From Chiloscyllium plagiosum (lineage: Eukaryota), in contig NC_057747.1 of the NCBI RefSeq assembly GCF_004010195.1, positions 9,445,879-9,509,878 of the forward strand: a stretch of 64,000 nt of DNA, given 5' to 3'. The stretch's first letter is position 1. Each line of letters starts with the position of its first letter. The translations under genes were made by a program, and so were the position numbers. Under the pieces are notes generated by a model. It saw only the letters and a program-made list of their open reading frames with translations. It was not told the origin of the DNA and ran no database searches. Below, in pieces: positions 4,430 to 59,950 of this stretch.

Positions 4430-5144
4430 TGTTATGGACCAAGCCAGACCCCCCTCAAAACATTTTAAAAAAATACACCACACCCTAACTTTGCCAGTTG
4501 TTTTAAGCAGGTGTAAAGTGGATGCAGCTAGTCGAACCACTTAGATTTAATCAAAACAGAATATTTACAAGATTACTGAATGAAACACAAACAGAAGAGA
4601 ACAGAATATAGAATAACTTAACCTCTCGGAAAACCCAACAGACTATGCCAACTTAATGATGCTGTTCCAAATTCGTGCAACATTCCCAATAAATACCCCT
4701 TGGCACAAAAGGTAAAATCAAACACAGGGTCATACAGGGGAGATGTCAGAGACAGATGATCACGGACCTACTTCTTTGGGTCCAGCAGCTTTTACAATGA
4801 CTGACTGCTTTCAGTGAACAGCCAAACTGTTACAAACCAAACCAAACCAGAGAAAAGAAGAAAGTGCGATTCCTGATTAAGGGCTAATGCCTGAAATGTT
4901 GATTCTCCTGCTTCTCGGATGCTGTCTGACCTGCTGTGCACTTCCAGCAACACACTCTCAAACCAGAGAAAAGCTGAGCTGGGAAAACTGGCCACTCCTC
5001 TTTCATTGTGTAAGTGTTTTTGTTAAACTTGAAAGCCTTGTGACTGAGGTCATATCTGTTAGCTATAATCAAGTTAGTCCTAAAACCCTTCAAACCTTTT
5101 GGAATCACTACTTTTTTGAAGAAAAAGCCAAGGTCAGCATAACT
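4430..5144 (-). mobile_element. Solo LTR-like element
   Basis: Termini tgttatg...cataac(t); shares segments with 20251-20868 and 61842-62468; TSD not recognisable. Confidence 0.55.
4858..4959. mobile_element. Penelope-derived mini-element with degenerate hammerhead core
   Basis: 14-bp TSD aaaccagagaaaag (4844-4857, 4960-4973); ctgattaagggctaatgcctgaaatgtt at 4873. Confidence 0.8.
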
Positions 5145-5689
5145 TTGTTCAAGGTACAGTATCATTACATGCCCATGAATGGCCAAGTCCCAGAATGAGG
5201 AGCCCATGGCTGCCATCTTGGAATATAGAACAGTTAAATGAGAGTGCATTAAAGCATATAAAATCCAGTTGGGTTCTTGGAAGGGTGGATGCAGAAAAGG
5301 TATTTCCTCTCGCATGATAATAAGAAGTTACATATTTAAGTGAGAAATTATGAAAAAATATTTAAAAGATGGTGGTGAGTCTTTGAAACGTTCCTCCTTA
5401 AAAAGCGGATGGTCAATTTTGCAGATTTGTAAGCCTGAGGGAAATAGGTTTGAGACAAGCAAGGGCTGTGAAAGTTATTGGAAGAATTTGAATAGTCATG
5501 ATCATATCCAGCAGGTTTGAGGAACTGACTGACCTAATCCTGCTCCCCATTGTTGGTATGGTTGTGCAACATGCTAATGAGACACAATAATACCATCATA
5601 GGAAATGATGCAATGTCACATGATCTTACCCTTCTTTGCAGTGACAGATGTCTTCTTAGCAGGATAAGAATTTTAAAACATCGTGCCAT

Positions 5690-6671
5690 TTTCGCATTCT
5701 GTCAATCTGGCATTTTTGCATTTTATGTACTCTAATTCTTGCATTCTTGCATTCTGCCCTTTGGTCATGGTTGCATTCTTGCATTCTGTCATTTGATCAG
5801 AATGGCAGAATGGAACATCATGCAAGAATGCAAAAATAACTTGATCTAAGATAGCAAGTATGCAACATTGCAAATCATGCAAGAAATTAAGAAGGCAAAA
5901 ATAAAAATAAATGCAAGGGTACAAAATGACATCATGCAAGAATGCTCAAATGATAGAATGCACAAATTAGAGTACATAAAATTCAAAAATGCAAACGTGC
6001 CAGAATGACAGAATGCGAAAATGACATTACGCAAAAGTAACAAAATACAAGAAGGAAACAAGAAAGCTAGGATAACTGAAGGCAAGAATGCAAAAATAAC
6101 AAGCATGACAATTAATAGAGCAAGAAAGTCCTAAGGACAGAATGGAAGACTGACAGTGTGCAAGAATGCAACAATGCAAAAAAAAATGCAAGAATGCAAA
6201 AAAATAACAAGAATGACAGATTGGAAGGATGCAAAGTTACAGATATGCAGGATGGCAGAATGGAAGTGTACAAAAATGACAGGCTGCGAGATTGCAAGTA
6301 TGCAACATTGCAAAGCATGCAAGAATATAAGAATGCAAAAATAACAAAATGCAAGAGTGCAAAATGACTTAATGCAAGAATGGCAGAATGGAACAGAATG
6401 CAATAATGCAACAATTAGAATGACAGAATGCAAGAATTCAAAATTACAAATTTGTAAGAATGACAGAATGGAAGAGAATACAAGAGTGTAAAAATGACAG
6501 ATTTCAAGAATGCAACTAGGCAATACATACAAGAATGCAAAATTACAAGTATACGAGAATGACAGAATGGAACAGAATGCAGGAATGCGAAATGACATGC
6601 TGCAAGATTGCAAGTATGCAACTTTGCAGAACATGCAAGAAAGCAAGAAAGCAAAATTACAAATATGCAAC
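5690..6671. repeat. Complex degenerate satellite built on an ~8-bp unit (atgcaaga/agaatgca), with an inverted 5' block
   Basis: ttcttgca units at about 5690-5790 switch to tgcaagaa units after about 5798; higher-order block gcaagtatgcaac recurs near 5853, 6294 and 6610. Confidence 0.85.
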
Positions 6672-6885
6672 AATGTGTCTTGTTTATTTTGTGCTTAATT
6701 GAGAGGACCCATTCTCTTCTTTTCGCATCATAATTTACTTCATTGCACTTTCTTTTTTCTCTTTCTCCAGCATTAACAACCCCTTTGCCTTTGACACTAT
6801 CTCCACACTTTGCTTTTCCTCCACCTCTGTCCAAAGTATCAAAAAAAAGTTTTTCAACATCTTTAAGTTCTGAAGAAGATTAATA

Positions 6886-7195
6886 GAGTCATAAAGCAGG
6901 GAAACACACCCTTCGGTTAAACTCATTCACACTGACTAGAATCCACTCTGACCTAGTCCAATTTCCCAGCATTTGGCCCATATCCCTCTAAACCCTTCCT
7001 ATTCATATAGCCTTCAGGTGTCTTTTAAATTTGTAACTGTGCCTGCATTCACCACTTCCTCTGGCAGCTCCTTCCATGCACATTCCACCCTCTGCATGAA
7101 AAAATTACTCCTCGGGTCCTTTTTGAATCTTTCCCCTCTCACCTTAAACCTATGTCCTCTAGCTTTGGAATCTCCCAACCTGGGGAAAAAGACCA
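6886..7195 (-). mobile_element. HER1/CR1 LINE 3' fragment
   Basis: Minus ORF 7014-7208 RGHRFKVRGERFKKDPRSNFFMQRVECAWKELPEEVV; tail at left. Confidence 0.88.
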
Positions 7196-7444
7196 TGGTT
7201 AGAGTCATTTTGGACTTGAAATGTTAATCCCGTTCCTCTTTCCACAGATGCTTCAAAACCTGCCGAGTTTCTCCAGATTTCCAATTTCCATAGTATTTCA
7301 CTTTTATTTGAGTGATTAACCTCAGTGATCCCATGATGGAGAGGGTAGTGATCTATGAAGGTTTGTGCTCCAGTCTGTATTTGATTGCTCTGTTGGAATG
7401 TGCACAAGGTTACTCACATGAAATAAAAGGAGACCTAGCCATGT

Positions 7445-8493
7445 GTAGAAGTCAGAGGCTGATGGTGGAGAGGGGCCTTTCATACTGGAGGTCTGTGACC
7501 AATGGTGTGTCACAAGGATCGGTGCTGGGTCCACTACTTTTTGTCTTTTATATAAATGGTTTGGAGGTGAGCATAGGAGGTATCGTTAATAAGTTTGCAG
7601 ATTATACCAAAATTGACGGTGTAGTGGACGGTGAAGAAGGTTACCTCAGATTACAACAGGACCTTGATCAGATGGGCCATTGGACTGAGCTGTGGCAGAT
7701 GGAGTTTAATTGAGATGAATGCGAGGTGTTACATTTTGGAAAGACAAATCAGGGCAGAACCTATACACCGAATGGTGAGGTCCTGGGGAGCGTTGTTGTA
7801 CAAAGAGACCTTGAAACAAATAGTTCCTTGAAAATGGAGTCACAGGTAGATAGGATAATGAGAAAGACGTTTGGTATGCTTGCCTTTATTGGTCATTCCA
7901 TTGAGCACAGGAGTTGGGAGGTCATGTTGCAGCTGTACAGGACATTGGTTAGGCCCCTTTTGGAATACTTGTGCAATTCTGATCTCCCTACTTTAGGAAG
8001 GATGTTGTGAAACTTTAAAGGGTTCAGGAAAGATTGACAAGGGTGTTGCCAGAGTTGGAGGATTTGTACTATAGGGAGAGACTGAATAGGGGACTGTTTT
8101 CCCTGAAGCATCAGATGCCGAGGGATGACCTTATAGAGGTTTATAAAATCATGTGGGGCATAGATAGGATAAATAGGCAAGGTCCTTTCCCTGGGGTGGG
8201 GAAGTCCAGAACTAGAGGGCATAGGTTTAAGGTGAGGGGGGAAAGATTTAAAAAGGACCTAAGGGGCAGCTTTTTCATGCAGTACGTGTATGGAATGAGC
8301 TGCCAGAGGAAGTGGTGGAGGCTGGTACAATTACAACATTTAAAAGGCATTTGGATGGGCATGTGGGTCAGAAGGGTTTAGAGGGATATGGGCCAAATGC
8401 TGGCAAATTGAACTAGATTAATTTAGGATATCTGGACGGCATGGATGAGTTGGACTGAAGAGTCTGTTTCTGCGCTGTACAGCTCTATGACTC
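7445..8493 (+). mobile_element. HER1/CR1 LINE, 5'-truncated RT pseudogene
   Basis: WRSVTNGVSQGSVLGPLLFVFYIN...KFADYTKI in ORF 7312-7713, continued with stops and frameshifts in 7726-8010 and 8034-8381; ctatgact tail. Confidence 0.93.
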
Positions 8494-8668
8494 GAAATGG
8501 ATATCTGGTGAGAAGATTGAGGTTATTCACCACATGGTTAAAAAGTGATATCATTCATTGTATGAAAAAGAGAAACTGCTCTGATAAGGTACAAGGGAAC
8601 AGTGGTGTCTGGTGGAACAATTGTTTTCTAGCATGAGGCGAAAATAAGTAAGAATTATTTATTTTCTT

Positions 8669-8802
8669 TGAGCTTTGACAAAGGGTCAGTTAGACTCGAA
8701 ATGTCAGCTCTTTTCTCTCCTTACAGATGCTGCCAGACCTGCTGAGAGTTTCCAGCATTTTCTCTTTTGGTTTCAGATTCTAGCATCCGCAGTAATTTGC
8801 TT
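8669..8802 (+). mobile_element. Penelope-derived mini-element (variant B), degenerate hammerhead core
   Basis: 14-bp TSD ttatttattttctt (8655-8668, 8803-8816); ttgacaaagggtcagttagactcgaaatgtc then gatgctgccagacctgctga. Confidence 0.7.
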
Positions 8803-9692: not shown

Positions 9693-10469
9693 TGATTCGG
9701 AGATGCCAGTGTTGGACTGGGGTGTACAAAGTTAAAAATCACACAACACCAGGTTATAGTGCAACAGGTTTAATTGGAAGCACACTAGCTTTCGGAGCGA
9801 CGCTCCTTCATCAGGTGATTGTGGAGGGCTTGATCGTAACACAGAATTTATAGCAAAAATTTGCAGTGTGATGTAACTGAAATTATACATTGAAGAATTG
9901 ATTGTCTGTTAAGCCTTTCATCTGTTAGAATACAGTGACATTTTCACTTCTTTCATGTGTAAATCACAAAACCCTTTTTTTTAAAGTTGCATTCTCGGGT
10001 TAGCTTTTAACAATGGTGATAGCTAGACAATATGTTGAAGGTGTTAGCCCCCTGTGTTCTCTGTCTATGACCTGATGTTTAGATAGATTCCAATCTAAAA
10101 AGTGAAATAACAGAGTTTTACATAAATTGATGCAGTTTTTGAGCTCAGAGTTCGACATGAATCTATGTGGTTTTTGAGCAAAGTGCAATGTAACTTTGTA
10201 CCAAAAGAATTCACCAGCCACTTTCCTCTGCTGCCTGTCCCGAAGTCCACCTTGGAGGATGGTCACCCGAAGGTCCGAGGCTGAATGTCCTGGACCACTG
10301 AAGTGTTCCCCAACTGGGAAGGAACACTCCTGTCTGTTGATTGTTGTGCGGTGCCCATTCATCCGTTGTCGTAGCCTTTGCTCAGTTTCCCCAATGTACC
10401 ATGCCTCTGGGCATCCCTGCCTGTAATGTATAAGATAGACAATGTTGGCTGAGTCACATGAGTACCTGC
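9693..10469 (-). mobile_element. Penelope-like element fragment: GIY-YIG endonuclease piece plus terminal repeat
   Basis: Minus ORF 10000-10509: SCDSANIVYLI..CPEAWYIGETEQRLRQRMNGHR..VGEHF; 10-bp TSD caatttgttt (9683-9692, 10470-10479). Confidence 0.9.
9783..9817 (-). ncRNA. Minimal type I hammerhead ribozyme motif
   Basis: Minus strand CAC-CUGAUGA-A-GGAGC(GUC)GCUCC-GAAA-G-CUA-GUG: intact core, 5-bp stem II, CAC/GUG stem I, palindromic AGCU in place of stem III. Activity untested. Confidence 0.75.
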
Positions 10470-11281
10470 CAATTTGTTTGCTCTGCTTTCTTTTTAAGCT
10501 GCAGCCCACAGTCCAAAGGTCATTTTAAGCTCCCAGTTCTCAATTCACAGCTCCAAACCAGAAAAAAATACATTAAAAGTGATGAAACATCAGTGAAAGT
10601 TCCAACAAGTATCTTGCCCAAGCAAGAGGTACCCTTAGGTTGCCCACAGACACCAGTGGGAGGAAGCTATTTGATCATAACAGGCATCACAGCCAAATGT
10701 ACTCTAGGCTGATGATATGGCTGGAGCAACGGGTGTTCAGCAAATGCTTAGGAGCAAGGAATCTTTCTAAATTATGTGTGTGATGGGTTGGGGGAGGTGG
10801 GGTTGCATATTGCATTGTCAGGGCCATAAAACGCTTCACTTGAGTTCAGGTAATTCAGCACAGACCTGAGCTGCTCCTGATCCATGATATTCAGTTCCGC
10901 ACAGGGCAGCTCATTATAGTAACCGGGCCAACAGAGAGCTGTAAACACTGCCTTTTTAAACGGGGATTGAAATCCAAGCTCGTCCACTCCCCCCCCCCCC
11001 AAAAAAAGTCACATTTGGGCATTGTGAGAAATGATTAAGACCATGTGTGACAAATTGGCACATGACTCATGTAGGCAATTACTTCCATGCCTTTGCAAGT
11101 TATGATAATCTGCTGACAATAGTGTATAATTCACAAGTTATTTTAGTGTGCTACACCTCCCTTCATCAGACACAAAAATGCATTTGCCTCTCAAACGCCA
11201 GGCAGCTAATTTTATGTTTCAGGAATCATTTTGATTGAAAATAAATCTGTGAGAGAGCAATTCCTAAAGGACATGCCTTTG

Positions 11282-13535: not shown

Positions 13536-13752
13536 AAGAGTCACAGAGTTATAATCATAGAGATGTACCACTCGGAAACAAACCCTCCGGTCCAACTCTT
13601 CCATGCGGACCAGATATCCTAAATTAATCTAGCCCCATTTGCCAGCGTTTTGGGACTAGATTAATTTAGGATATCTGGTTGGCATGGATGAGTTGAACCA
13701 AAGGGTTTGTTTCCATGCTGTACATCTCTACGATTATGACTCTATGACTCTT
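13536..13752. mobile_element. Fold-back (head-to-head) pair of HER1 LINE 3' ends
   Basis: 13536-13648 is the reverse complement of 13652-13752; tails point outward. Confidence 0.8.
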
Positions 13753-14155: not shown

Positions 14156-14816
14156 TGGATGGACAGCAAGCCAAAGAATTAGAAATAAGGATGAATGGTT
14201 TATCTTTGGCCAATGAGTTTTGTGGATGCTCCTTCAGCAGGAGGAGATGGGATTGGATTACAAAAGGAAAGGAACAATTAATCAGGTTTCTGTGTTGATT
14301 TTTCAAAAAAATTCATTTACAGGATGAGGACGTTGCTGGCTAGGCCAGCATTTATTGCCTATTTCTAATTACCCAGAGCGCAGTTAAGAATCAACCACAT
14401 TGCTGTGGGTCTGGAGTCACATACAGGCCAGACCAGGTAAGGATGGCAGTTTCCTTCCTTGAAGGGCATTGGTGAACCAGATAGGTTTAGAACATAAGAA
14501 CTAGGAGCAGGAGTAGGTCTTCAGGCCTGGTCCACCATTCCATAAGACCATGATTGATCTTTTAATGGCCTCAGCTCCACTTACCCACACTCTCACAGTA
14601 AGCCTTAATTTCTTTATTGTTCAAATATTTCCAACAATCAACTCTTAATTCCAGGTTGTTTTTTAAAAAATTGATCCAATGTGGTTTGATTCAAACCTGA
14701 GCCCCAACTCTGGATTAGCAGTCCTGTGATAATACCACTAGGTCATCGCCTGTCCTTGAATAGTTGTAGTAACGCGGTCAGCAAAGAAAGGGAATTTTAG
14801 AGGTGACACTAGTCCA

Positions 14817-14912
14817 GTTCTGATGAAGGGTTACTGGACCCGAAACACTGACTCTGCTTTCTCTCCGCAAATCCAGCCAGACCTGCTGAGTTTTTCCAGC
14901 ATTTTCTGATTT
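14817..14912 (+). mobile_element. Penelope-derived mini-element (variant B) with hammerhead core
   Basis: ctgatga-a-gggtt(actg)gaccc-gaaa at 14820; cleavage triplet mutated. Confidence 0.7.
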
Positions 14913-15339
14913 GGATCCTCCTGAAAGTCTGACAGCTACAGTAGAGAAGTGTAAAGTGAAGTCATTGCTGAAGGTGCCATGCGTACAATCAGATTGGAGA
15001 TGAAACCGTTGAAGTGTTGTGCCAATGATGTGGATCAGGGTTTGGTAGAGGAAGATGTAGTTGACTGTGGTAAAGACTTGAGGAAGATGACGCAAGGATA
15101 ACACTCCCCATGGTCACAGGGAATACTGTCAATTGGTTTGAGCCAGGGACTATGATGGGGAGCGCAAAAGTCTGATTGAAGAGATTTGAACAGGGGAGAT
15201 AGCATGAATTGTTAACCAGCAGCATGAAGTGTTTTGGAGGGTGGGGGTGCATAGTTTCCAAGGCCAGAGGGTTTTTTTGTGGTTTAGCGAGTGGGGACCA
15301 TTTTGAAGACAAGGAAACAATTTATAATGTCAGTTAGCA

Positions 15340-15766: not shown

Positions 15767-15953
15767 GTCAAGATGAGAGTGGTGCTGGAAAAACACAACA
15801 GGTCAGGCAGCATCCGAGGAAATCCTGATGAAGGGTTTTTGCCCAAAACACTGATTTTCCCGCTTCTTGGATGCTGCCTGACCTGCTGTGTTTTTCCAGC
15901 ACCACTCTAATCTTGACTCTAATCTCCAGCATCTGCAGTACCCACTTCCACCC
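15767..15953 (+). mobile_element. Fold-back Penelope-derived mini-element with hammerhead core
   Basis: 13-bp TSD aatgttggtaaga (15754-15766, 15954-15966); inverted arms; ctgatgaagggtttttgcccaaaa at 15825. Confidence 0.85.
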
Positions 15954-16445: not shown

Positions 16446-16664
16446 CACCGACTGTTTTGCAGGCAATGTGCTGGAATGCACCAAGCTGAACAAGTGTTTT
16501 AAAATCTATCCGCAGCAGTACCTGGGCAACTGGACACAACATTAGCTGCTGCACAGTATGAATGTTTAGGTGCATATGGAATGGACACATTATCATTCAG
16601 CTGTATATACACTAAAGTTGGAATGATACAGAGGAGATTAGCATAGGCTGTGCCAGGCTGGCAT

Positions 16665-16770
16665 GCAATCTTGTGGTGCAGTGGTAGTGTGCCCACCACT
16701 AGATTGGGGTTGCCCAGGTTCAAGTCCCACTCTTGCTCTGGAGATGTGTCGCAACATCTCTGAACAAATT
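16665..16770 (+). mobile_element. Short tRNA-headed SINE fragment (second family)
   Basis: tggtgcagtggtagtg A-box, ggttcaagtccc B-box; related pieces at about 18250-18350, 29425-29540, 36580-36680 (-) and 48370-48460 (-). Confidence 0.55.
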
Positions 16771-22206: not shown

Positions 22207-22345
22207 ATAAAACAAAGAACTGTGTATACTGGCAGTCTGAAATAATAACATAAATTCTGGAGAAATTAGCAGGTTTGGCAGCATTAGCTTTCTCTCCACA
22301 CATGCTGCCAGACCTGCTGAGTTTCTCCAGCACTTTTTGTTTTTG
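22207..22345. mobile_element. Old fold-back mini-element (variant B), hammerhead core lost
   Basis: ctggagaaattagcaggtttggcagcat inverted against atgctgccagacctgctgagtttctccag. Confidence 0.6.
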
Positions 22346-24754
22346 AATTAAAAACTAATACCTGATATGATGTGTTTGTAACATGGCAAAAAGTAGAGTT
22401 TTCAAAAGGGGTATAGGGCTCCACAGTGTATATACAGGTCACAAAGAAATAAGTAGAAAAGATACTCAGAAAGCTTTTATGACAAGATTGCTAGAATGAT
22501 GAAGATAGAGTTTGGTTGCAGCTACTCAAGGTTCTGATTAGACCAAATATAGCATATTGTGTCTAGTTCTAGGCACTATACCTTAGAGTGGATACGTTTT
22601 ATCTGGAACAACTACAGCTCAGATTCACAAAGATGTTACCAGGATCCCAAAGGTTAAGAGGAGAGATCACACAACCTTGCATTTCCAGGAACATTATAGG
22701 TTAAGGGGTGATTTTAATTTTTTTTAAAGGTTTTTTGAGGCAATTGATGGGATGGATAGAGAGAATCTTAATCTGCTGATGGAGCAAATTATGTTAAAGG
22801 CTGTACCTTGAAGTCAGAGCCAGGCATTCAGGGAAGAATTTCAGAATCCCTCCTTCCCATAAAGGATGGTAAAAGAGCTGATTCTCTTCTCGAAAAAGCA
22901 GTAGCTGATAATATGACATTGATAAATGTTTTGCAACAATATGGTGCCAAGGCGGATGGAGAGAGAGGTGTGATCCCATGCCTGTCCTGTGTTGCTAAAG
23001 CTGGAGCTTCTCTGGTCTTTGCTGTTGTTAAGACAAATTTAAATGTTGTTATGAGGATGTTTACCTCAGCATTGTGGTCCATATTTATTCCTCAACCAAT
23101 TTCACTAAAACCGATTGACTGGTCAATGACATTGCAGTTTGCAAGATCTTGCCATGCATCAAGGACTCCCAATTGATGATGTTTCTTTCATTACAGCACG
23201 CACTTCAGCAGCACTTAAGTTACACTGAGACATCTGGAGGTCATGAAAGGTGCAATACAAATGCCAGTTATTTTACCTTGTGCGATTAACGCCAGCCTAT
23301 CAACATGGAAATCTAAGTTGGGTAAGTCTCTGCTCTTTGCAACTCTGTACATCGTCAATGGAGAACAGAGCTGTCCTGTTACCTATGTAACCCAGATGGA
23401 ATGAACTTTGATGTCTTTCCAAAGTATGTGGAGTGAATACGCAAGACCAGATTAGGCACAGGACCAGTATAAATGCTGCTTGTATAATGTTCTTAGACAC
23501 ACTGGCGTCCACTCCAATTATTTGAATCAGATAAATATTGCCATTTATATTTGGATCACCTGAACCGAATTTGAAATTCCAGCTACACCAGCCAGGTCGC
23601 AATACATCTTTCATATTCATTGTTGCAAGAGGCACATGAATGCAAGCAAATTCTTCCACGCTGTCTTTGATTTCATTTCTATTTCCATCCCGCGAAATAA
23701 ATTAAGAGAAATGTATTGCCTGGAGTGATAATCAACCAGCAGAGAGAAGACTTGTTATAGGGTCAACCTTCTTGCTTTCTGGAGGATTAATTGAAGTAAT
23801 TGGCTTCAGAAACTTCAGATGCTCAGAAGACAAAAAGTCAGCCATGGTACTTCCTTCGGTTTTGTAAGACCAGCTGGCTAAATGTTTATACGATAAAAGC
23901 AAAACACTGCGGATGCTGGAAATCTGGAATAAAACAGAAAATGCTGGAAAAACTCAGAAGGTCACAACCCTTCCTTGTGTATTTACATGATGTGGATACT
24001 AGCACACTCAGATGTAACTATGTTCAGTAGTCTGTTAAGACCTTTATTTTTGGCTGGACTTAAAAATAAAGAACTCAGAAAGCTGCTGGTGCCTACTGAA
24101 ATCCTTAAGTCACAGCTTTGCTCATGGAAAAATAAAGACACTGTTTGCCAACTTCACGTAAAATTTAAAAGCATTTTTACAAGCTTCGTAAATCTGTCAG
24201 TACTCAGGGAGGTACAAATGCTGAATTAACTAGAAATTAGCTTAACATTCAGACATGTGGTTTCTTCCAATGAGTTGCAGGTGACGGTGCTGTCTATATA
24301 AGTTATTGATTCCGTCCCAAATCCCTGCCTGATGTAGCTGGTAAGAAGCAGGACAATAGGAACTTTGTAACTGCCCCCGGTGACCATGAGCTAAGAAAGG
24401 GCCAGGAAAAGGGTCAAGGTTCATGTTTCTGTTCTCCATACAGCGATCCTTGAAATGCAAAGGTGTGCACAAGTGGGCTTTTTCTGTGATGTTCTAAATG
24501 GCGGGTTATTTTGTTGACATTCATCACAGACATAGGCAATAGCAACTTGAGAAAGGACAGAAACAGGGACGGAGTTCCTACCATTGAAAGAACAGCAGGA
24601 TTGAAAAGATATATTTGGTCAGGGGTTGATGATCTGGAATCATCTTGGGTGGGTACTTCTTAAGAGCTGAATAGCTATGTCCCTAATTTCACAAGGTCCA
24701 CTGGTCAATAACAGTTTATGGTCTTGCTGTGGATATATATGTTATGCCTAAGAT

Positions 24755-25235
24755 CATAAGAAATAGAAACAGGAGGAGGCAATTCAGCCCCTTGAACCTG
24801 CTGCCCCATTCAATCGGATCATGACAATGCTTACACCCACTTTCCCGCCCTTACCCTGTAACCCTTAATTCCCTTATTGATCAAAAATCTTTCTACATCA
24901 GCCTTAAACAAACACGAGTCGATAGATGTGAAGCTGGAAGAGCACTGTAAGTCAGACAGCGTCCGAGGGGCAGGAAAGTCAACATTTCGGACCGAAACCC
25001 TTTGTCAAGACTGACAAAGGATTTCAGCCTGAAACATTAACTTTCCTGTCCCTTGGATGCTGTCTGACTTACTGTGCTCTATGAGCTTCACATCTACTGG
25101 CTCTGACTTCCAGCATCTGTAGTCCTTACTGACTCCTTAAATGTAAGGAATCTGCCCCCACAGCTCTCTATGGCAAGGAGTTCTAAAGACTCTCAACCCT
25201 CTGTGAGAAGAAATTGTATTCCTGTGTGGTGTAAA
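24755..25235 (-). mobile_element. CR1 LINE 3' fragment interrupted by a mini-element
   Basis: cataagaaataga..ggaggcaattcagccc tail at left; ggagttc..ctctcaaccctctgtgagaagaaatt after the insertion. Confidence 0.65.
24917..25136 (+). mobile_element. Fold-back Penelope-derived mini-element
   Basis: Inverted ~90-bp arms meeting at tttgtcaag-a-ctgacaaagg (25001-25020), i.e. two opposed degenerate hammerhead cores. Confidence 0.8.
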
Positions 25236-31529: not shown

Positions 31530-31820
31530 AGGAGAAAGTGAGGACAGCAGACGCTGGCGATTGGAGTGGAGCAGCGGGGGGGGGGGGGGGGGGGTGGGAG
31601 GAAGGTAGCTGGGAAGGTGATTGGTGGATGCAGGTGGGGGATGATGGTGATAGATTGGAGAGGAGAGTGGAGTGGATAGGTGGGAAGGGAGATAGACAGG
31701 TCAGACAGTTCACGAGGACGGTGTGAGTTGGAGGGTTGGATCTGGGATGAGGTGGGGGAAGGGGATATGAGGATGCTGATGCTGCCTGACCTGCTGTGCT
31801 TTTCCAGCTCCACACTCTTT
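31530..31820. mobile_element. Rearranged Penelope terminal-repeat insertion with G-rich tract
   Basis: 17-bp TSD gaccctaattacttgct (31513-31529, 31821-31837). Confidence 0.8.
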
Positions 31821-32331
31821 GACCCTAATTACTTGCTGCGTGAAAAAGGTTTTTCTCACATCACCCTTGCTTCTTTTGCACATCACTTTGAATCTATGTC
31901 CTCTGGTTCTTGTTCCCTTTAAAAGTGGGAACAGCGTCACCCTATCAACTCTATCCAGCCCACGCATGGTTTTGAAAACCTCTATCAAATTAACCTTCTT
32001 CTCTCTCAGGAGAACTGTACCCAACTTCTTCAATCTATCCTCATCACGGAAGTTTCTCATTCCTGGAACCATTCTCGTAAATCATATTCCTGTGAGACCT
32101 GTGCCTTTCCTCACTCTCGCTCATGGTCCAGAGGACTCATTCCAAATGTTTTTGTTTTTCTGACAGCTCATTTGGAAGGTAAAACGTCCCCACAAACCCC
32201 TCCGTGTTAGAAACACAAACAACGCTGGTCAGGATCTCAAAGGAATCACTTCCGAAGAAGACTCATTCTGGCCTTGAAGCATTGACTCTGTTTCTCTCTC
32301 CATAGATGCTGCCAGACATACGTATGACTGA

Positions 32332-33239
32332 GGTTTGGATCAGAGTGCTGCTGGAAAAGTACAGCAGGTCAGGAGCAGGAAAATTGATGTTTCAGGCAAA
32401 AGCCCTTAATCAGGAATAGAGGCAAGAAGCCTCCAGGGTGGACAGATAAATGGGGGGCTAGGGGGAGTGCTGGGGAGAAGGTAGCAAAGAGTACAATAGG
32501 TGAATGAGGGTGGGTATGGAGGTGATAGGTCAGAGAGGAGGGTGGGGGAAGGTAGCAAAGGGCACAGAAGGTGATTGGAGGTGGGGATGGAGGTNNNNNN
32601 NNNNNNNNNNNNNNNNNNNNNNNNNNNNNNNNNNNNNNNNNNNNNNNNNNNNNNNNNNNNNNNNNNNNNNNNNNNNNNNNNNNNNNNNNNNNNNNNNNNN
32701 NNNNNNNNNNNNNNNNNNNNNNNNNNNNNNNNNNNNNNNNNNNNNNNNNNNNNNNNNNNNNNNNNNNNNNNNNNNNNNNNNNNNNNNNNNNNNNNNNNNN
32801 NNNNNNNNNNNNNNNNNNNNNNNNNNNNNNNNNNNNNNNNNNNNNNNNNNNNNNNNNNNNNNNNNNNNNNNNNNNNNNNNNNNNNNNNNNNNNNNNNNNN
32901 NNNNNNNNNNNNNNNNNNNNNNNNNNNNNNNNNNNNNNNNNNNNNNNNNNNNNNNNNNNNNNNNNNNNNNNNNNNNNTTGCTACCTTCCCCACCCTCCCC
33001 TCTGACCTATCACCTCCATCCCCACCTCCAATCACCTACTGTACTCTTTGCTACCTTCTCCCCAGCCCTCCCCCATTTATCTCTCCACTCTGGAGGCTTC
33101 CTACCTCTATTCCTGATGAAGGGATTTTGCCCAAAACGGCGGTTTTCCTGCTCATAGAATGCTGCCTGACCTGCTGTGCTTTTCCAGCACCACACTGATC
33201 TAAACTCTGGTTGCCATCATCTGCAGCCCTCACTTTCTC
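32332..33239. mobile_element. Long fold-back Penelope terminal-repeat element spanning an assembly gap
   Basis: Arms are reverse complements; degenerate 15-bp TSD catacgtatgactga / cattcatatgactga; hammerhead-like ctgatgaagggattttgcccaaaa near 33113. Confidence 0.75.
32595..32977. other. Assembly gap (383 N)
   Basis: Run of N. Confidence 0.99.
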
Positions 33240-33254
33240 CATTCATATGACTGA

Positions 33255-33837: not shown

Positions 33838-33964
33838 TGAAAATGTGTTGCTGGAAAAGCGCAGCAGGTCAGGCAGCATCCAAGGAACAGGAGAATCGAC
33901 GTTTCGGGCATAAGCCCTTCTAAACGCCAGCTCGCGGACACCTCCTCCTACTTTTATTTTAACC
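33838..33964 (-). mobile_element. Young Penelope mini-element arm fused to an unrelated 45-bp segment
   Basis: 17-bp TSD tactggattactaaagc (33821-33837, 33965-33981). Confidence 0.8.
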
Positions 33965-35519: not shown

Positions 35520-35870
35520 TGTCATACAGTCATACAGCATGGCAACAGACCCTTCCTGATGAAGGGTTCCTGCCCGAAATGCCGATTTCCCTGTTCCTCG
35601 GATGCCCACCTGACCTGCTGTGCTTGTCCAACACCACTCTAATCTTGACTCTAATCTCCAACATTTGCAGTCCTCACTTTCGCCTAACAGACCCTCAGTC
35701 CAACCAGTCCGTGATGACCATAATCCCAATATAAAATACTCCTACCTGCCTACTCCCAGCCCATATCCCTCCAAACCTTTCCTATTCATGTAAAAGTGTT
35801 TTACCAACATTTCTTCAGGGAGTTCATTCACACACGAACCATCCTCTGCGTAAAAGATTCGCCCCTCATG
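35520..35870 (-). mobile_element. HER1 LINE 3' fragment interrupted by a mini-element
   Basis: gtcatacagtcatacag tail; ccatatccctccaaacctttcctattcat. Confidence 0.7.
35554..35685 (+). mobile_element. Penelope-derived mini-element starting at the hammerhead core
   Basis: 10-bp TSD aacagaccct (35544-35553, 35686-35695); ctgatgaagggttcctgcccgaaa at 35556. Confidence 0.82.
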
Positions 35871-37681: not shown

Positions 37682-38100
37682 GGGTGACACAGTGGCTCAG
37701 TGGTTAACACTGCAGCCTCACAGCACCAGGGACCCAGGTTCAATTCCAGCCTTGGCGACTGTGTGGGTTCTCCCTGTGTCTGTGTGTGCTTCCTCCCACA
37801 ATTTGAAGATGTGCAGATTAGGTGGATTGGCCATGCTAAATTCCTGATGAAGGGCTTTTGCCCAAAAAGTTGACTTTCCTGCTCCTCAGATGCTGCCTGA
37901 CCTGCTGTGCTTTTCCAGCACCATTCTAATCTTGACCATGCTAAATTTCCCATATTGTTCAGGGATGTGTAGGCTAGGTGCATTAGTCAGCGGTAAATGT
38001 AGAGTAAAGGGGAATGGGTTTGGGTGGGATACTCTTTGGAGGGTCAGTGTGGATTCGTTGGGCCAAAGGGCCAGTTTTCACACTGTAGTGATTCTATGAT
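37682..38100 (+). mobile_element. HE1-type SINE carrying a mini-element
   Basis: Typical SINE split at ccatgctaaatt. Confidence 0.85.
37843..37935 (+). mobile_element. Penelope-derived mini-element starting at the hammerhead core
   Basis: 12-bp TSD ccatgctaaatt (37831-37842, 37936-37947); ctgatgaagggcttttgccc at 37844. Confidence 0.85.
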
Positions 38101-42894: not shown

Positions 42895-43094
42895 GTGAGG
42901 TAAAAACAATGACTGCAGATGCTGGAAACCAGATTCTGCAGATCAGTGGTGCTGGAAGAGCACAGCAATTCAGGCAGCATCCGAGGACAGGCAAAATCGA
43001 CGTTTCGGGCAAAAGCCCTTCATCAGGAATGAAGGGCTTTTGCCCGAAACGTCGATTTTGCCTGTCCTCGGATGCTGCCTGAATTGCTGTGCTC
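42895..43094 (-). mobile_element. Young fold-back Penelope mini-element
   Basis: 15-bp exact TSD (42880-42894, 43095-43109); perfect 68-bp inverted arms. Confidence 0.9.
42997..43028 (-). ncRNA. Minimal type I hammerhead ribozyme motif
   Basis: Minus strand UC-CUGAUGA-A-GGGC(UUUU)GCCC-GAAA-C-GUC-GA; canonical GUC triplet, palindromic ACGU stem III, weak stem I. Activity untested. Confidence 0.7.
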
Positions 43095-43914: not shown

Positions 43915-44015
43915 TTCTGAAAAAGGGTCACTGGATTCGAAATGTTAACTCTGTTTTTTTTCTCCACCGACACTGCCAGACCTGAGTTTCTCCAGCAATT
44001 TCTGTCCTTGTGTGT
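43915..44015 (+). mobile_element. Penelope-derived mini-element (variant B), decayed
   Basis: ttctgaaaaagggtcactggattcgaaatgttaactctg...ctgccagacctgagtttctccagc. Confidence 0.6.
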
Positions 44016-47287: not shown

Positions 47288-47549
47288 AAGTTTTCCACAA
47301 TGCTTTACACACCAGCTATTGCTCCTGGTACAGTTTGAGTGGTTGGATTATTTTCAATGTTATCTCTACTGCTCCAACAGCAATACCTTGCATTGATATA
47401 GTGGCTAGCGCTACCCAGAGAGCCTCCTGGTCATGTGTCCAATATCAATTTTAAATGTTTTAACAAAGATCTCAAGATTCATTCATTCAAACTCATTTCT
47501 GCTCAGCGACTATTTTTGAGTGACAGGTTTGCAGGTGTTTATTTTATAG

Positions 47550-47631
47550 AGTCAGAAGTCACACGACAGGTTCATAGTCCAACAAGTTTATTTGAAAATA
47601 CAAGCTTTCGGAGCATTGCTCCTTCACCAGG
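47550..47631 (-). mobile_element. Penelope terminal-repeat fragment (variant C) with degenerate hammerhead core
   Basis: Minus strand ctggtgaaggagcaatgctccgaaagctt; related to 9700-9820. Confidence 0.65.
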
Positions 47632-47639
47632 CAGCATAA

Positions 47640-50658: not shown

Positions 50659-50841
50659 TAAAAATCACACAACACCAGGTTACACAACACACAACACAAC
50701 AAAAATCACACAACACACAATCACCTGATGAAGGAGCGTCGCTCCGAAAGCTAGTGTGCTTCCAATTAAACCTGTTGGACTATAACCTGGTGTTGTGTGA
50801 TTTTTAACTTTGTACACCCCAGTCCAACACCGGCATCTCCA
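50659..50841 (+). mobile_element. Young Penelope mini-element (variant C) with inverted 5' arm
   Basis: 15-bp exact TSD attcatttattcagt (50644-50658, 50842-50856); nearly identical to the terminus of 9693-10469. Confidence 0.9.
50722..50756 (+). ncRNA. Minimal type I hammerhead ribozyme motif
   Basis: CAC-CUGAUGA-A-GGAGC(GUC)GCUCC-GAAA-G-CUA-GUG, identical to 9783-9817 (-). Activity untested. Confidence 0.78.
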
Positions 50842-52684
50842 ATTCATTTATTCAGTATTTTACCATTTATACAATTCATTCAGCAATCCAAGATGGCACT
50901 GGAATGTGGCGACATTATCCATTTTTTACTGTATCTAAGTACGAGTGTCAATATATTAAGTAAATCAAAATAATTTTTTTTCTTTATTGTAGCTCTTCAT
51001 GAATGATGATAATTTGCTCATAAAACAAACCAACGAACTATAGATTCTGGAAATATGTACTCAACATAATTTGCTTGTCCTAATGTTTCTTCCCTGCAAT
51101 AACTGTTAGAAGTGATGAGGCAAAATCCCTTGTTCCCTCCCATCCTGGATCTCAGCTGTTTTCAGCCACTCAAACTACAGGATCAAATCCTGGAGAGGAT
51201 CACATCTCCTCTCCCCCAGTTAAATGATCCCCTTTTACAATGACCGTCTGTTTCTAATTATGAAAGTAGATTTTTGACCAATTTCTTTCCCCTCGCCGCT
51301 TCCTCTTTATTCCCCAAGCTTGTACCTTTGGTACCAGTCTCTCGTGAGCTATTTCACTGAGTGGCTTTTGAAAACTGAGATGAAAAATATCCCCTAGCTT
51401 GCCCCCATCTGGTAACTCAGTCACAACCTCAATAAATTTATGAAGCACGGTCGTCTATTCATAAATCCACGTCGGCTTTCCGTGGTCGTATTTACTTTTG
51501 ATAAATGATCCTGAATTATGTCCCTTATAATCTTCTCAAATATTTTTATGACTAACCTAACCAGCCTGTATTTCTTGCCCTTTCTTTAACATTGGCACGA
51601 CATTAGGTTGACACTCCTGTTTTCAATGAGCTACTGTATATTTTAACCAAAGTCTAAGCTCCCAGGGGGTTATGAAAAGATATTTGAGAGCATTTTTAAA
51701 CTATTTACCAGGGTTATTATGATTTGAGATCTGCAAGCCTTATGAGGAAAGGCAGCTTTACTGCTTGACAGAGCAACAAAGGAGGAACTGCGAGTCAGAG
51801 CCATGCAAAGATTGTTCTGTTATACCCTGATTCATGGGCTGTTGATCAGTTCGTGTTTCTAATCATCTCATTATTATAACTAACTTGTTTTCAGAGCCCC
51901 TCTGCGTTCGGACATTTTCTACAAGTTGTGCTGTAGCGATAAGGTGTTAATTTTATTTTAAACCAGCAGACCATACCAAAAATACACTCAGTGCCCAGAA
52001 ATTCATACATAAATAATCTCATTAAATACAGAACTCACCTTCACCTGGCTCCAGTCTACCTGCCATTAAATGAATGCCAGCATTACTAAAGTCAACAGGA
52101 GTCCTGTGTGAAAAGAAAATGGCCGCCTCTTGGATGCAATTGTAGACACTTGGCCCATGTGTCTACAATCAGCCTTTGATTAAGGGTTGACTCTTTCTTG
52201 CCACTTTTTTTCCTGGCTTAAAATATTCAGTCGGAGTGAGAGACTGTTGTAAGTGAGGCTAATGAAGTGGGTGCAATCATTTTCACAATACCTATGCATG
52301 CCTGCAGTTTTAGTCACATGTGCATCACACCTCAATCAAATAACTCTCACAAAAGTCAAATAGGGACAATTTGAATACTCAGGAATAAATGGGTCGGTGA
52401 TTAAAAACCAGAATCAGGAATCAAAACTGCTTTGAAACCACCCATGTACAGTTTGTGTGTGGGGGTTGGGAGGGGGGAAGTGGACAACAAGCAGAGAGTT
52501 CTTAGGTTTCAGGGCAGTCCTTGGAAGCTTCAAGGCTTAATAGGGCTTACAGATTGGCTGGTTTTCCTTTTCCATGGGAAATCCAGCAAAATGAGGTAAC
52601 GGGGACTGGTTCCATCAGCTGAGTATTATTTACAGCACTGTTTGTGGGCCAAGGTGAGCAGAACTGTTTCCTTCAAGCTCAATG

Positions 52685-52837
52685 TGGGAGGTGCCAATGT
52701 TGGACTATGGCGGACAAAGTTTAAAATCACATGACATTATGTTATAGTCCAACAGGTTTATTTGAAAGTTCAGGCTTTCGGAGCACTACTTGACGAAAGA
52801 GTAGCGCTTTGAAAGCTTGTGATTTTTAACTTTGTCA
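52685..52837 (-). mobile_element. Older fold-back Penelope mini-element (variant C)
   Basis: 13-bp TSD with one mismatch ttcaagctcaatg / ttcaggctcaatg (52672-52684, 52838-52850). Confidence 0.72.
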
Positions 52838-54936: not shown

Positions 54937-55137
54937 GAAAATGTGTTGCTGGAAAAGTGCAGCAGGTCAGGCAGCATCCAAGGAACAGGAGAATCAACGT
55001 TTCTTCAGGAATCCTGAAGAAGGGCTTATGCCCGAAACATCGATTCTCCTGTTCCTTGGATGCTGCCTGACCTGCTGCGCTTTTCCAGCAACACATTTTC
55101 AGCTCTGATCTCCAGCATCTGCAGCCCTCACTTTCTC
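54937..55137 (+). mobile_element. Fold-back Penelope mini-element with hammerhead core
   Basis: 13-bp TSD acttaagatggct (54924-54936, 55138-55150); ctgaaga-a-gggc(ttat)gccc-gaaa-c-atc at 55014. Confidence 0.87.
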
Positions 55138-55209
55138 ACTTAAGATGGCTCCAAAAGTGCTGACCTGTAAACTCTTTACTATATGCTTTGCGTACATGTG
55201 ACAATAAAG

Positions 55210-56900: not shown

Positions 56901-58804
56901 ATCAGCGAGTAAGGAAAACTCACGAGCGTCATTATGAACAGGGAAGAACATGTGATCTTTTTGAGTTTCTCACTTACGTGACTTTACTTAGTTTGTGGAA
57001 TCTCTCTAACATTAAGCAGCTTGAGAAAAAAATTAATTTGAATTAAAGTAGAGGCATCTTGACATCCTTATGATGAACTCAGTATCCTTTGAACATCCAA
57101 CCTCATCTCCTGTTGTCACAATAGTCTTGTTGTCCATATAGCGTCCCTTCATATAGGTTAGTTTAGATGAGATACAACGCTACTCACTTTGCTCTTTTTC
57201 CGTCCAAATAGAGTTAAACAGAATTTATAGCACAAACCAAGCCATCCAGCCTAACTGACCCACATAATGCTCTTCCCACCTTACTCCAGTTCACCCTATC
57301 AAAATTACTCTCTGGTCTTTTAAGATAAATTTCAAACACTTTAGACAGTCCTTGGTGGGGAACTTTAACAAAACCAAATTCAATGGTTTTGAAAAATCGC
57401 AGAAACTGATCAAAATTAAATAAAGCAACCACAGCAGGATTTGAACCGACAATCTTCTGATAACAATATAATCTACACTGAAGTCAGACAATCCCAGCAG
57501 TTAAGAAACAGTTCGATGATCTATTTTCATTTTAGTATGTTGAAGAGCCTTAGTCTACAAGACTACAGGTCAAAGGCTGGAAAATGGGAACAGAGAAGTT
57601 AGGCATTTGATGACTGGTAGACGCATGATGGGCTGAAGGGTCACCTTTCATGCTGATAAATTTTACCCTATGACCATTGGGCGACGCAATCAACTTCAAA
57701 ATCATTCTCTACTCTTTCCTCCTGCAGGTATTTATGCAGCTTTCCTTCAAATGCACCTTTGCTATTCATCACAACCACTCCATGTGAGAGCAAGTTCCAA
57801 TGTAATTCTTAGATTAAACTAGGAACTAAATTAATTAGGTTTAGTCAGGAGACAATCATATTGGCATTTTTAAGTTAAAGCTTCAACTTCCTGCTTGATA
57901 TTTTACAATTTCAGTTTTCTGGAATTATCAAGCTGGATGAACAAAAAAAAAACTGAAGTTTTATTTTGCTAAATTGGCAGGGTATTTTGTCGTTTGCAAT
58001 GTGTTTTACATTGTCAATGTCAGTGAAACGTTAATAATGTTTGAGCAATGCTGTAGCAGGAAGTCTTTGGTTTTATTACCTGTTCAGACTGCTCTGGGGC
58101 TAACAGAACTCAACATATGAATGCCTCTCACTATTGCTGGTTTCCCTCCTGATTAAAATGACCTAACTTGGCAGAATGATCCTTCCAAACAATACATAAT
58201 AGATGGCTCCTTTTAAACATAGAGTGCAGATACAAAACAGATTTGACGTTAATGAGGGACAAAAACATAGTGTGCTGATCTCTCCTCCAGGTAATCTTCC
58301 ATTAATAGTTGGAAGACAGGGTTAGTTGGAATTTAAGTCCCAATCCAACAACGTATCTCAGTCTGACACTTGTGGGACCGTGTTCCACCGCTACCAACAG
58401 TTCAATCAGATCAGAAGGTTCTCAGATAAAATTCTGGCTCTTGAATAATCTCCCTGTCTATCTGCTGCCTCCAAGTCCCCTCCACATGTGCAACTTCCAA
58501 ATGGACCCACTATCAATCTTCCTGCAGTAGGGGAACCAAAAGCCAAATTTTAAAGCTTTTGAAAATCACTTAATAAAAGGAGGAGGAAAATGGCTCCTTT
58601 CACAACCATAAGATGTCCCAAAACATTTTTCAGATATTGATGTCCTTATGATGTGCAGTGACTGTCAAAATATAGGAAGCACGGCAGCCGATTTGCAAGT
58701 AACAGTCTCCCACAGAATATGATGCTACGATGATCAAACAATCTTTATCCTTGATGTTGATTGGGGATAAATATTTTCAGGGAATCAGGACATAAGCATG
58801 TGCC

Positions 58805-58905
58805 ACAAAAACAGATGTTGCTGGAAAAGCTCTGCAGGTCTGGCAGCATCTCTGGAAAGAAATCAGAATTAATGTTTCTGGTCATGTGACCCTTCCTCAG
58901 AACAG
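58805..58905 (-). mobile_element. Penelope-derived mini-element (variant B), decayed
   Basis: Minus strand ttctgaggaagggtcacatgaccagaaacattaa..gatgctgccagacctgc. Confidence 0.6.
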
Positions 58906-59268
58906 GGTCACCCAAAGAATAGAACTCTGACAGTGCAGCACTCCCCTGGTCCTGCAATGTTGTGTCAAACCTGGGTTTGTTGAGCTCAAAGGGACATGAA
59001 CTCACTGTACAGAAATGGGAAGAAGAACCATGATAGCTTTTCCGTAACCATCAAGCCTAATCTAATGATTGGGTTTACGAATTTAAAAAGCTCCCAGTGA
59101 CTGGAACCAAAATCTAAGAATGGGAACACTTTTTCTTTAATGATGTCAGAGAATCAACAATTTCTTAAAAGCAGAGTTGAATCTTTTATTTGTGGCTCAT
59201 TGAAATTTCTAAAAAAATGCACATTCAAATTGATGATTTTATTTTTAAATTACTCGGGAGGAATTGCG

Positions 59269-59396
59269 TATCATGGGATATGAGTATCATGGGAAATCGA
59301 TGTCATGGGAAATGGGCATCATGGGAAATGGGTGTCATAGGAAATGGGGATCTTGGGAAGTGGGCATCATGGGAAATGGACATCATGGGAAATGCC
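59269..59396. repeat. 16-bp minisatellite, 8 units (consensus catcatgggaaatggg)
   Basis: Eight consecutive 16-bp units without indels. Confidence 0.88.
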
Positions 59397-59819
59397 AGAT
59401 TTCTTCCTCAATTCTAATGGTCCTTGAAGCCAGTTAAGGATGAACCACATTGCTTTGAGTCTGCAATCACAAGATATTGGTTTCTTTCTAAGGGCATTAG
59501 TGAACCAGGTGGGTTGTTTGTGGCAATTGGTGAGGGCACCATTTATTAAGATTAACTGAGAAGGGTAGTGCTTGTCACTAGTCACTCCGGTATTTCCTTT
59601 CTTCCTGGTGGTGGAATATGAATAAAGATTTACGCACTTGTTTGTTCGTCAATGTGTCCTACACCTGCATAGTTGCTGAGGAAAAATAAACACTACCGCT
59701 GTTAGGGCAAAGAAAAAGCATAATCACAATAAAAACAGAAGGAAAAAAATGAACAGGAGTGTCAGGGGTTCAGTTCACTCCGAGAGCTGGATCTGAGGAA
59801 ACTGGAAGTAAATAAAAGG

Positions 59820-59950
59820 GCAGGGGGTTGAGCAGTGTCCGGGGAGCAGGAGAGCTGCCGAATTCCTGATGAAGGGCTAATGCCCCAAACATCAGCTCTC
59901 TCCAGTTCCTCAGATGCTGCCTGGCCTGCTGTGCTTATCCAGTGCCACAC
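59820..59950 (+). mobile_element. Fold-back Penelope mini-element, decayed
   Basis: ctgatgaagggctaatgccccaaacatc at 59866, short inverted arm upstream. Confidence 0.7.

Follow-up and report, generated by a model that had tools for sequence, protein, structure and literature searches.

Short Penelope-like inserts with hammerhead motifs in a shark genome are very probably products of individual insertions

Our data indicate that a 64-kb window of the Chiloscyllium plagiosum genome (the whole stretch analysed, positions 9,445,879 to 9,509,878 of NC_057747.1) is populated by end-pieces of a known kind of element, the Penelope-like elements (PLE), which are decayed and belong to three families, A, B and C. 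These inserts are very probably produced one insertion at a time and are not copies of an amplified unit. We favor, with a probability of roughly 0.55, a mechanism in which each insertion involves paired internal priming and run-off to the transcript start.

Decayed Penelope-like end-pieces in the window

Profile searches seeded with window copies found 24 PLE loci, one per 2.7 kb, of which 22 measure 54-291 bp and the remaining two 777 and 909 bp; no full-length PLE copy was found within the 64-kb window. A preliminary description of this DNA had reported more than 15 insertions, mostly of 90-300 bp, at about one per 3-4 kb, and the dense population that it claimed stands with the figures given here. 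Its Penelope origin, minimal type I hammerhead of the dimer type, target-site duplications (TSDs), inverted terminal pieces, non-random short insert size and three stem II variants were also borne out, while its term fold-back applies to 10 of the 24 loci (7 of the 11 that it named) and not to the others. Rfam (E<=1) reported no hammerhead in the window, only one U6 copy and chance miRNA-like hairpins. A strict scan for core plus stem gave 8 matches against 0.87 in shuffles, and 23 against 12.6 when one mismatch was allowed. A metagenome pattern scan gave 17 loci, all rejected as unrelated, with matches over the 20-30-nt seed only.

Positions within arms take the first C of CUGANGA as +1. Two alternative 3' ends occur in each of families A and B, at approximately +85-96 (short) and +124-130 (long). 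Family A single arms lie on the plus strand at 35554..35685 (-2 to the long end; 10-bp TSD), 37843..37935 (about -4 to the short end; 12-bp TSD) and 59862..59951 (-4 to the short end; TSD not found), and a family A arm on the minus strand at 33838..33964 runs from +5 to the short end with 43 unassigned bases and a 17-bp TSD. Family B single arms lie on the plus strand at 8669..8802 (-6 to +128, the long end; 14-bp TSD), 14812..14915 (from about -4; TSD not found), 43915..44004 (from about -2; TSD not found) and 61526..61612 (from about -2; no convincing TSD), and on the minus strand at 58808..58906 (starting at -2 to -6; TSD not found). Family B fragments, all on the plus strand, lie at 7201..7287 (from about +8; TSD not found), 32247..32317 (about -2 to +63, stopping at the start of the next insert) and 60748..60801 (tail only, from about +60). 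Family C contributes, on the minus strand, a long 5'-truncated copy of 777 bp at 9693..10469, comprising a coding fragment, 3' UTR, hammerhead and tail, and a variant single arm at 47545..47635 (from -1 to -5 through the short end; TSD not found).

Ten inserts are two-armed. In family A, the insert at 4858..4958 (plus strand; 15-bp TSD) has an arm from -5 to +88, a short end, after an inverted stub of the long end; 15767..15953 (13-bp TSD) has an inverted left arm from +39 to the short end and a right arm from -2 to the long end; and in 24916..25136, a variant (TSD not found), the arms join at -4 / +1 with the short end left and the long end right. The insert at 31530..31820 (17-bp TSD) lacks a hammerhead and reads as an inverted long end, an inverted upstream CT-rich region and a forward arm from +46 to the short end. 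The long insert at 32332..33240 (short left, long right) contains natural upstream sequence, with a hairpin ending at -6 and an initiator-like A at -4, and both of its arms extend upstream into a 383-N gap. At 42895..43094 (15-bp TSD), the left arm runs from -4 to the long end with an intact hammerhead and the right arm from +4 to about +70. At 54937..55137 (13-bp TSD), the left arm starts at -4, has lost stem II and reaches the short end, and the right arm runs from -2 to the long end. Family B is represented by 22210..22346, which lacks a hammerhead and has its long end left and short end right (TSD not found). Family C is represented by 50659..50841 (15-bp TSD), with AC-rich slippage at its left short end and a right arm, hammerhead intact, from -9 to the long end, and by a variant at 52685..52837, with the long end left and the short end right, the latter with an internal deletion. 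The long end at 4858 is just about 10 nt and the short end at 42895 falls about 15 nt under the usual one, the weak cases for the pairing of ends described below.

All 11 TSDs of the preliminary description were found, 10 of them exact and one with one mismatch (13 bp, at 52685), at the lengths it gave save at 4858, where it had 14 bp. Two further TSDs surround 9693-10469 (10 bp) and 32332-33240 (15 bp with 2 mismatches), and none was found at 10 other loci searched. TSDs flank 8 of the 10 two-armed inserts. Of 4972 random segments, 0.3% contain an exact 10-mer repeat with similar spacing.

Ends of the arms and the proposed mechanism

We found that the 5' end falls at -9..+1 in 19 of the 22 arms that reach +1, while a loss of 0.6% per nt over +2..+60 predicts about 6% (binomial 1e-20, or 4e-13 under a stricter loss rate); end positions were read by eye, and arms of one insert are non-independent, so that the count by insert is 17 of 19. 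Twelve of these 19 arms adjoin a TSD or their partner arm and thus need no upstream reference. Among 14 arms, the sequences upstream show no relationship to one another save in the two long A arms. All six core-bearing family B arms end at -6..-2 in a window that holds no long B copy. In both long A arms a YYANWYY initiator places the start at -4, a position at which six A arms end; such motifs are frequent (1.2-1.8% of positions) and were searched for post hoc. TATAWAW is absent in family A. In family C, a putatively functional TATAWAW match at -38 (9846..9852, minus strand; window rate 0.0006 per nt) stands 30 nt ahead of an initiator-like A at 9822 (-8), a TATA/initiator spacing that fits a predicted transcript start at -8. 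No transcript start was observed in the RNA run, whose library is 3'-primed and shows no pile-ups of read starts or ends, and no consistent cap-derived extra G was seen by eye at the junctions. The family C boundary is leaky or weaker, since DNA depth drops only about twofold over it (from 2.55 million at 9800 to 1.2-1.4 million at 9859-9863) and its zone is involved in 2 of the 15 joints listed for this family; among the six rows listed for the DNA run there is no family C loose-end peak at -9..+1. The clustering of 5' ends speaks against random truncation, the alternative that the preliminary description had set against its own reading, and likely reflects run-off at the 5' start of the element RNA.

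A strong pause at the hammerhead front edge, during ordinary 5' truncation of a long tandem or read-through PLE RNA, is a rather unlikely source of the same boundary. The pause could be caused by an upstream hairpin or by a ribozyme bound by protein or as a dimer, and a 6-7-bp hairpin, a possible stall for the enzyme, does end at -6 in both long family A arms. Family C depth falls gradually, as a pause would have it, and the published model invokes tandem transcripts (PMC11167929, PMC6765202). However, the family C fold lacks such a hairpin, an enzyme that meets the ribozyme from its 3' side would be expected to stop near +30 and not at -4, and a pause leaves the TATA-initiator spacing of family C unexplained.

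The 3' ends are also discrete. Among the ends listed, family C DNA contigs end at +84 (303 contigs), +116 (776) and +122 (1071), the last being also the end of the family C reference copy, and the flanks of these ends are AT-rich and heterogeneous. The poly(A) signal of this family (+41) and its two poly(A) addition sites, 9757 (+58) and 9754 (+61), fall within 9754..9774 on the minus strand and thus upstream of all three; in the single RNA sample, poly(T) loose ends number 440 at +61 and 338 at +58 among 3632 mapped reads. The 3' end of that RNA therefore lacks the stretch between +62 and the DNA ends, which must have been copied either from a 5' leader or from an RNA that reads through. No poly(A) signal was present in +1..+86 of families A and B in the 11 arms checked. 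Every one of the 10 two-armed inserts has one long and one short 3' end with the tails pointing out, for which the chance is 1/2^10 given independent ends at even odds. The partner arm is the nearest sequence in 4 of the 5 family A pairs tested.

In the mechanism that we favor, the element enzyme would nick both target strands at the landing site, and reverse transcription would start at two internal sites of the RNA 5' leader, some 85 and 120-130 bases past the hammerhead core. The cDNA would usually run off at the 5' start just ahead of the hammerhead, so that the pile-up of 5' ends would mark the transcript start, and a single RNA would serve as template for both arms, each nicked strand receiving one. 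Longer copies would need either read-through or tandem RNA, or a jump to the hammerhead segment that is repeated at the polyadenylated 3' end. Such a jump from the transcript start would resemble retroviral first-strand transfer, and the run-off would resemble strong-stop DNA.

For the second arm alone, it is conceivable, if doubtful, that a second priming on RNA is replaced by snap-back self-priming, with either the first cDNA or an antisense strand as template. Arms do share private changes (at 42895 they are 100% identical over 68 nt), junctions show short overlaps, and self-priming on an antisense template was proposed earlier (PMC3846280). By itself, however, snap-back gives no reason for the second arm to end at the other fixed start site of the family, as it does in 10 of 10 inserts; the left arm of 31530 has upstream sequence absent in its right arm; and in vitro, cutting and extension affect both strands (PMC11167929).

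Coding copy, hammerhead decay and junctions

The long family C copy holds a broken C-terminal coding fragment (10183..10470, minus strand) with 82% identity to P0001 and 70% to the C-terminus of the RT-bearing P0008. The fragment is putatively GIY-YIG-like by its motif, and Pfam and PDB searches gave no endonuclease match. The relatives P0001 and P0008 both have a Cys-rich linker between RT and endonuclease, short of which the window copy ends; this linker has been described for Neptune/Nematis-type PLE (PMC8557442). No coding sequence was linked to families A or B in the window. Positions 50716-50846, within the 183-bp insert at 50659, are 97% identical over 131 nt to 9693-9823, so this short insert corresponds to the end of the TSD-flanked 777-bp coding copy, and short copies do not differ in kind from long ones. 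Two TSD-flanked long copies end as short ones do.

The preliminary description had proposed a ribozyme-plus-tail unit amplified as such. For single arms this amounts to short, non-autonomous SINE-like masters that use host promoters and are mobilised in trans, which would account for the constant 5' edge, including that of the six family B arms. This is improbable, given the 97% identity of a short and a long C copy, the separate masters that one boundary would require in at least three families, the two alternative 3' ends, the varying junctions and the decay of copies.

That decay extends to the hammerhead. An intact minimal hammerhead of family C lies at 9782..9820 (minus strand), with a predicted cut between 9786 and 9785 (+29/+30). 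In a core-anchored alignment, stem II is paired in 78 of 84 cells, against 21-49 after sliding by 1-2 bases, and stem I in 61 of 84, against 19-32, in a register fixed from a prior structure and hence biased towards pairing. The claimed covariation of stem II is upheld by compensatory changes between families. CUGANGA and GAAA, said to be kept, are kept between families but not within copies: the whole core is intact in 6 of 21 arms, and core plus helix-III palindrome in 3 of 21. Nor are 31530 (core absent) and 33838 (first 4-5 core bases missing) hammerhead-bearing, as had been stated. In family A copies the core is not significantly better conserved than the tail, with non-CpG differences at 5/90 in the core and 53/530 in the tail (p=0.24), and single-arm folds were no more stable than shuffles in 7 of 7 cases (z -1.5 to +0.7). 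None of 32 arms has its 5' end at the ribozyme cut site, the nearest ends being at +37 and +39; this count omits the 4858 stub, the 43 unassigned bases of 33838 and the rearranged left arm of 31530, which does extend upstream. No read-end pile-up was seen at +29 in the RNA run, whose 3'-primed library is poorly able to show one. In the reading that we favor, the hammerhead is a passenger in the window copies.

All nine visible fold junctions differ, as do all insert lengths (54-909). Individual junctions and lengths were among the outcomes that the preliminary description had named as refuting its own reading, and those outcomes largely hold here. The 15 joints listed from a public DNA run are scattered, at depths of 10-86 against about 16 in the flank; no circular joint is among them, and a poly(A) library cannot display circles. 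No head-to-tail tandem units were found among the 24 loci. Amplification of whole fold-back units, MITE-like or retrozyme-like through circular RNA, would suit the eight palindromic two-armed inserts with TSDs but is largely refuted by the differing junctions, the near single-copy depth of the joints listed, 5' ends that avoid the cut site and want of the tandem hammerhead repeats or permuted ends that are hallmarks of metazoan retrozymes (PMC7229834).

Relation to known elements

Solitary minimal hammerheads from truncated PLEs were already described in 2014, and the catalogue is ordinary in kind; Rfam misses them. In the available part of that work (Cervera and De la Pena 2014, PMC4209133), minimal hammerheads of metazoan PLEs are mostly solitary and "probably related to truncated PLEs", and some form pairs on opposite strands, 100-700 bp apart. 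The window motifs share their core, extra base before stem II, G-C first pair and palindromic ACGU/AGCU replacing helix III, but have short stems (stem II 4-5 bp, stem I 2-4 bp); sharks are absent from the taxa in that part. Endonuclease-bearing PLE units consist of a pLTR, an inverted 5'-truncated copy and an optional 30-40-bp tail (PMC3846280; PMC8557442), and the window inserts show the same inverted arm and optional tail, with TSDs. In those elements a single ORF encodes an RT and, C-terminal to it, a GIY-YIG endonuclease, and a partial tandem gives two direct pLTRs around a full ORF. Most window inserts measure just 54-291 bp, at the very high density of 24 per 64 kb. Neither a pile-up at the front edge nor a poly(A) site ahead of the tail is mentioned in the available portions of these two sources.

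PAc, which belongs to the Poseidon elements and comes from Anolis carolinensis, starts reverse transcription at two internal sites that define its tail. Its targets are AT-rich, both strands are cut and extended, and no RNA ends occur where the ribozyme cuts (Frangieh et al. 2024, PMC11167929). The discrete family C 3' ends with AT-rich flanks fit these start sites and tail. The PAc ORF begins in stem II, whereas the same frame stops early in window families A and C, and the available part of that paper states neither that a long and a short start are paired in a single insertion nor that there is run-off to the transcript start. The start in Drosophila Penelope is some 120 nt ahead of helix I (PMC2377424 with PMC4209133), so a start at the ribozyme edge is not general. 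Metazoan non-LTR retrozymes are likewise small, non-coding and presumed to be PLE-mobilised, with a type I hammerhead, but they are head-to-tail tandems whose canonical hammerheads yield circular RNA (PMC7229834; PMC7761336). Neither such tandems nor such hammerheads were seen in the window inserts, nor a circular joint among the 15 listed.

More tentatively, shark PLEs might follow a retrovirus-like R/U5 logic without true LTRs, the tiny inserts being integrated strong-stop cDNAs and full copies arising only after the jump. The start would lie at the hammerhead front edge and the poly(A) site about 60 bases on, a dimeric enzyme would prime both nicked strands at two 5'-leader sites of one RNA, and paired hammerhead copies could possibly hold the RNA ends together. 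The origin of pseudo-LTRs, inverted arms and one-sided tails and the role of the hammerhead are called open in the available parts of the PLE literature. The inserts are valuable as a fossil record of the PLE mechanism and offer a modest mechanistic lead: the order of start, hammerhead, poly(A) site and two priming sites, together with the one-long-one-short rule, makes specific predictions for an in vitro PLE assay.

Penelope-like end-pieces and their genomic setting

The window DNA is repeat-rich and of vertebrate type. Profile searches of the window identified end-pieces of Penelope-like elements (PLEs) at 24 loci in three families (A, B and C); these loci total 4619 bases, a 383-N gap counted in, and 22 of them are 54-291 bp long. 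All 11 target-site duplications (TSDs) named in the preliminary description were recovered, ten of them exactly and the eleventh with a mismatch. A further two TSDs each surround a long copy, and a search at 10 other loci found none (the chance level of an exact 10-mer repeat at comparable spacing is 0.3%). The stubs at 37843 and 42895 were inserted within copies of an abundant SINE, which we take to be tRNA-type, and both TSDs contain the same short SINE motif (n=2).

Other repeats include a degenerate full-length U6 snRNA copy at 16585-16692 (+), which at 45.8 bits, barely above the Rfam cut-off, is likely a pseudogene; a degenerate array with 8-base periodicity at 5825-6678, immediately preceded by an inverted portion; and, at 13536-13752, two inverted 102-base LINE 3' ends with 13 bases between them.

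A TSD-flanked 777-bp family C copy at 9693-10469 (-) holds coding sequence 82% identical to protein P0001 and 70% identical to the RT-bearing P0008. The coding fragment (10222-10482, minus strand), a putative GIY-YIG piece, matches shark proteins, among them those of Chiloscyllium punctatum (up to 92%) and Hemiscyllium, and points to a bamboo-shark-like source. At 10161-10226 (-) this copy lacks the final stretch of the ORF, and read depth collapses there, in keeping with an internal deletion confined to this copy. The fragment is also contained in shark gene models P0009, P0011, P0031, P0038 and P0042, reflecting exonisation or annotation contamination.

Ends and arms of the inserts

We scored by eye the 5' ends of 32 arms from profile matches and locus alignments, leaving out the stub at 4858, the rearranged left arm at 31530 and 43 unassigned bases at 33838. 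With +1 as the first C of the hammerhead core CUGANGA, 10 arms stop within +2 to +60 and 22 reach +1; 19 of the latter stop at -9 to +1 (17/19 when counted by insert) and 3 continue upstream. The loss rate across +2 to +60 predicts that about 6% would stop per 10-base window. The boundary adjoins a TSD or partner arm in 12 of the 19 arms. In the other 7 it is based on upstream flanks that are unrelated to one another, their best pair scoring 20 against a null 99th percentile of 22.5; the upstream flanks of the two long family A arms score 111 as a pair. None of the 32 arms has its 5' end at the predicted ribozyme cut site.

Family C carries TATAWAW, a rare motif (0.0006/nt), at -38; its initiator-like A follows at -8, a distance we judged against the consensus spacing of core promoters; both long family A arms contain YYANWYY with its A at -4, initiator-type motifs being common. 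Two results from contigs of a public DNA run aligned to family C count against a sharp boundary: no loose-end peak at -9 to +1 is among the six listed, and depth across the boundary drops only about twofold. A family A upstream hairpin ends at -6, and the stops might reflect a pause on a long RNA, which we consider unlikely.

Each family has one short and one long 3' end, 30-45 bases apart. In the contigs, family C ends at +84 (303 contigs), +116 (776) and +122 (1071, a figure that partly reflects where the reference copy itself ends), and the flanking DNA is AT-rich. This offset corresponds to the tail published for an Anolis PLE, where it is bounded by two internal start sites of reverse transcription (PMC11167929).

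Ten of the 24 loci are two-armed, with arms head to head and tails outward, and in all ten one end is long and the other short, 4858 and 42895 being weak cases. In 4/5 family A pairs no sequence is closer to an arm than its partner; in the fifth the partner ranks second (0.944 vs 0.958). Self-priming, which would account for the second arm only, is a doubtful alternative. Short SINE-like masters, best suited to family B, are more improbable still; arm 50716-50846 is 97% identical to 9693-9823, the end of the 777-bp copy. The earlier proposal of a hammerhead-bearing fold-back parasite amplified as a unit is not supported and is very improbable, given this identity between short and long copies, fold junctions that differ in 9/9 cases outside the assembly gap, and a 909-bp two-armed insert whose ends are arranged like those of the 200-bp inserts. 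Family C joints in the contigs have depths of 10-86 each vs about 16 in the flank (15 of at least 100 joints). Insert 31530, flanked by a perfect 17-bp TSD, lacks the hammerhead and includes inverted upstream sequence.

Within another 17-bp TSD, 43 bases (33921-33964) have no other match in the window and could represent either captured DNA or an element end lying further downstream. A 383-base assembly gap (32595-32977) is central to a long two-armed insert, and long fold-backs may be under-assembled genome-wide.

Family C RNA and the hammerhead

From one raw poly(A) single-cell RNA run (X21; a single sample, of which about 2% was read), 3632 reads aligned to family C, and most of them had the orientation that the read layout of oligo-dT libraries gives for sense RNA. 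Poly(T) ends occur at +61 (440 reads) and +58 (338), with a poly(A) signal upstream at +41. Internal oligo-dT priming is an unlikely source, because neither position is among the DNA loose ends listed and the sequence beyond is GU-rich, not A-rich. Since coverage continues across the predicted cut site (depth 1338 at 9800 and 1185 at 9761) and start or end pile-ups are absent from the listing, many polyadenylated family C molecules are uncut; products of cleavage would be too short for detection. These RNAs may stem from the element itself or from host transcription that uses the poly(A) signal, which was absent from the 11 family A and B arms checked. A predicted tail hairpin at 50716-50841 (+) pairs bases just before the poly(A) site with a segment beyond, and one might speculate that it masks this promoter-proximal poly(A) site.

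Across 21 core-anchored arms, stem II is paired in 78/84 cells (21-49 in slid registers) and stem I in 61/84 (19-32). Stem II pair 3 is G-C in families A and B and A-U in family C; pair 4 is C-G, U-A and G-C in A, B and C, respectively. A 4-base palindrome stands in place of helix III: AGCU in 4/4 family C arms, and ACGU in families A and B, surviving in 1/17 arms with CpG-type decay in most others. The full core is retained in 6/21 arms, and core plus palindrome in 3/21. Among nine family A arms, 5/90 non-CpG core cells differ from the majority, compared with 53/530 elsewhere (p=0.24), and 23/70 CpG cells differ. Pairing across families and core losses in copies indicate a ribozyme that source lineages conserved and that is decaying in their copies.

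Proposed priming within the 5' leader

In family C the priming sites lie beyond the poly(A) site, so the first-copied bases cannot derive from the polyadenylated RNA end; they probably come from the RNA 5' leader, with retroviral R/U5 and strong-stop DNA as the comparison. An enzyme priming there would reach the putative transcript start after 90-135 bases, and such run-off would match the 5' pile-up as well as the size of most inserts. If both nicked target strands were primed at two sites of one RNA, tail-out palindromes of one long and one short arm would result, and the junction would differ from one insertion to the next. For longer copies, read-through RNA or a jump to the repeated segment at the RNA 3' end would be required.

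In the literature covered, mainly outside subscription journals, we found no statement on shark PLE hammerheads, nor on a poly(A) site within the pLTR or on a strong-stop model for PLEs. The population observed here is real and belongs to a known kind, and its value rests on the end geometry together with the poly(A) mapping.
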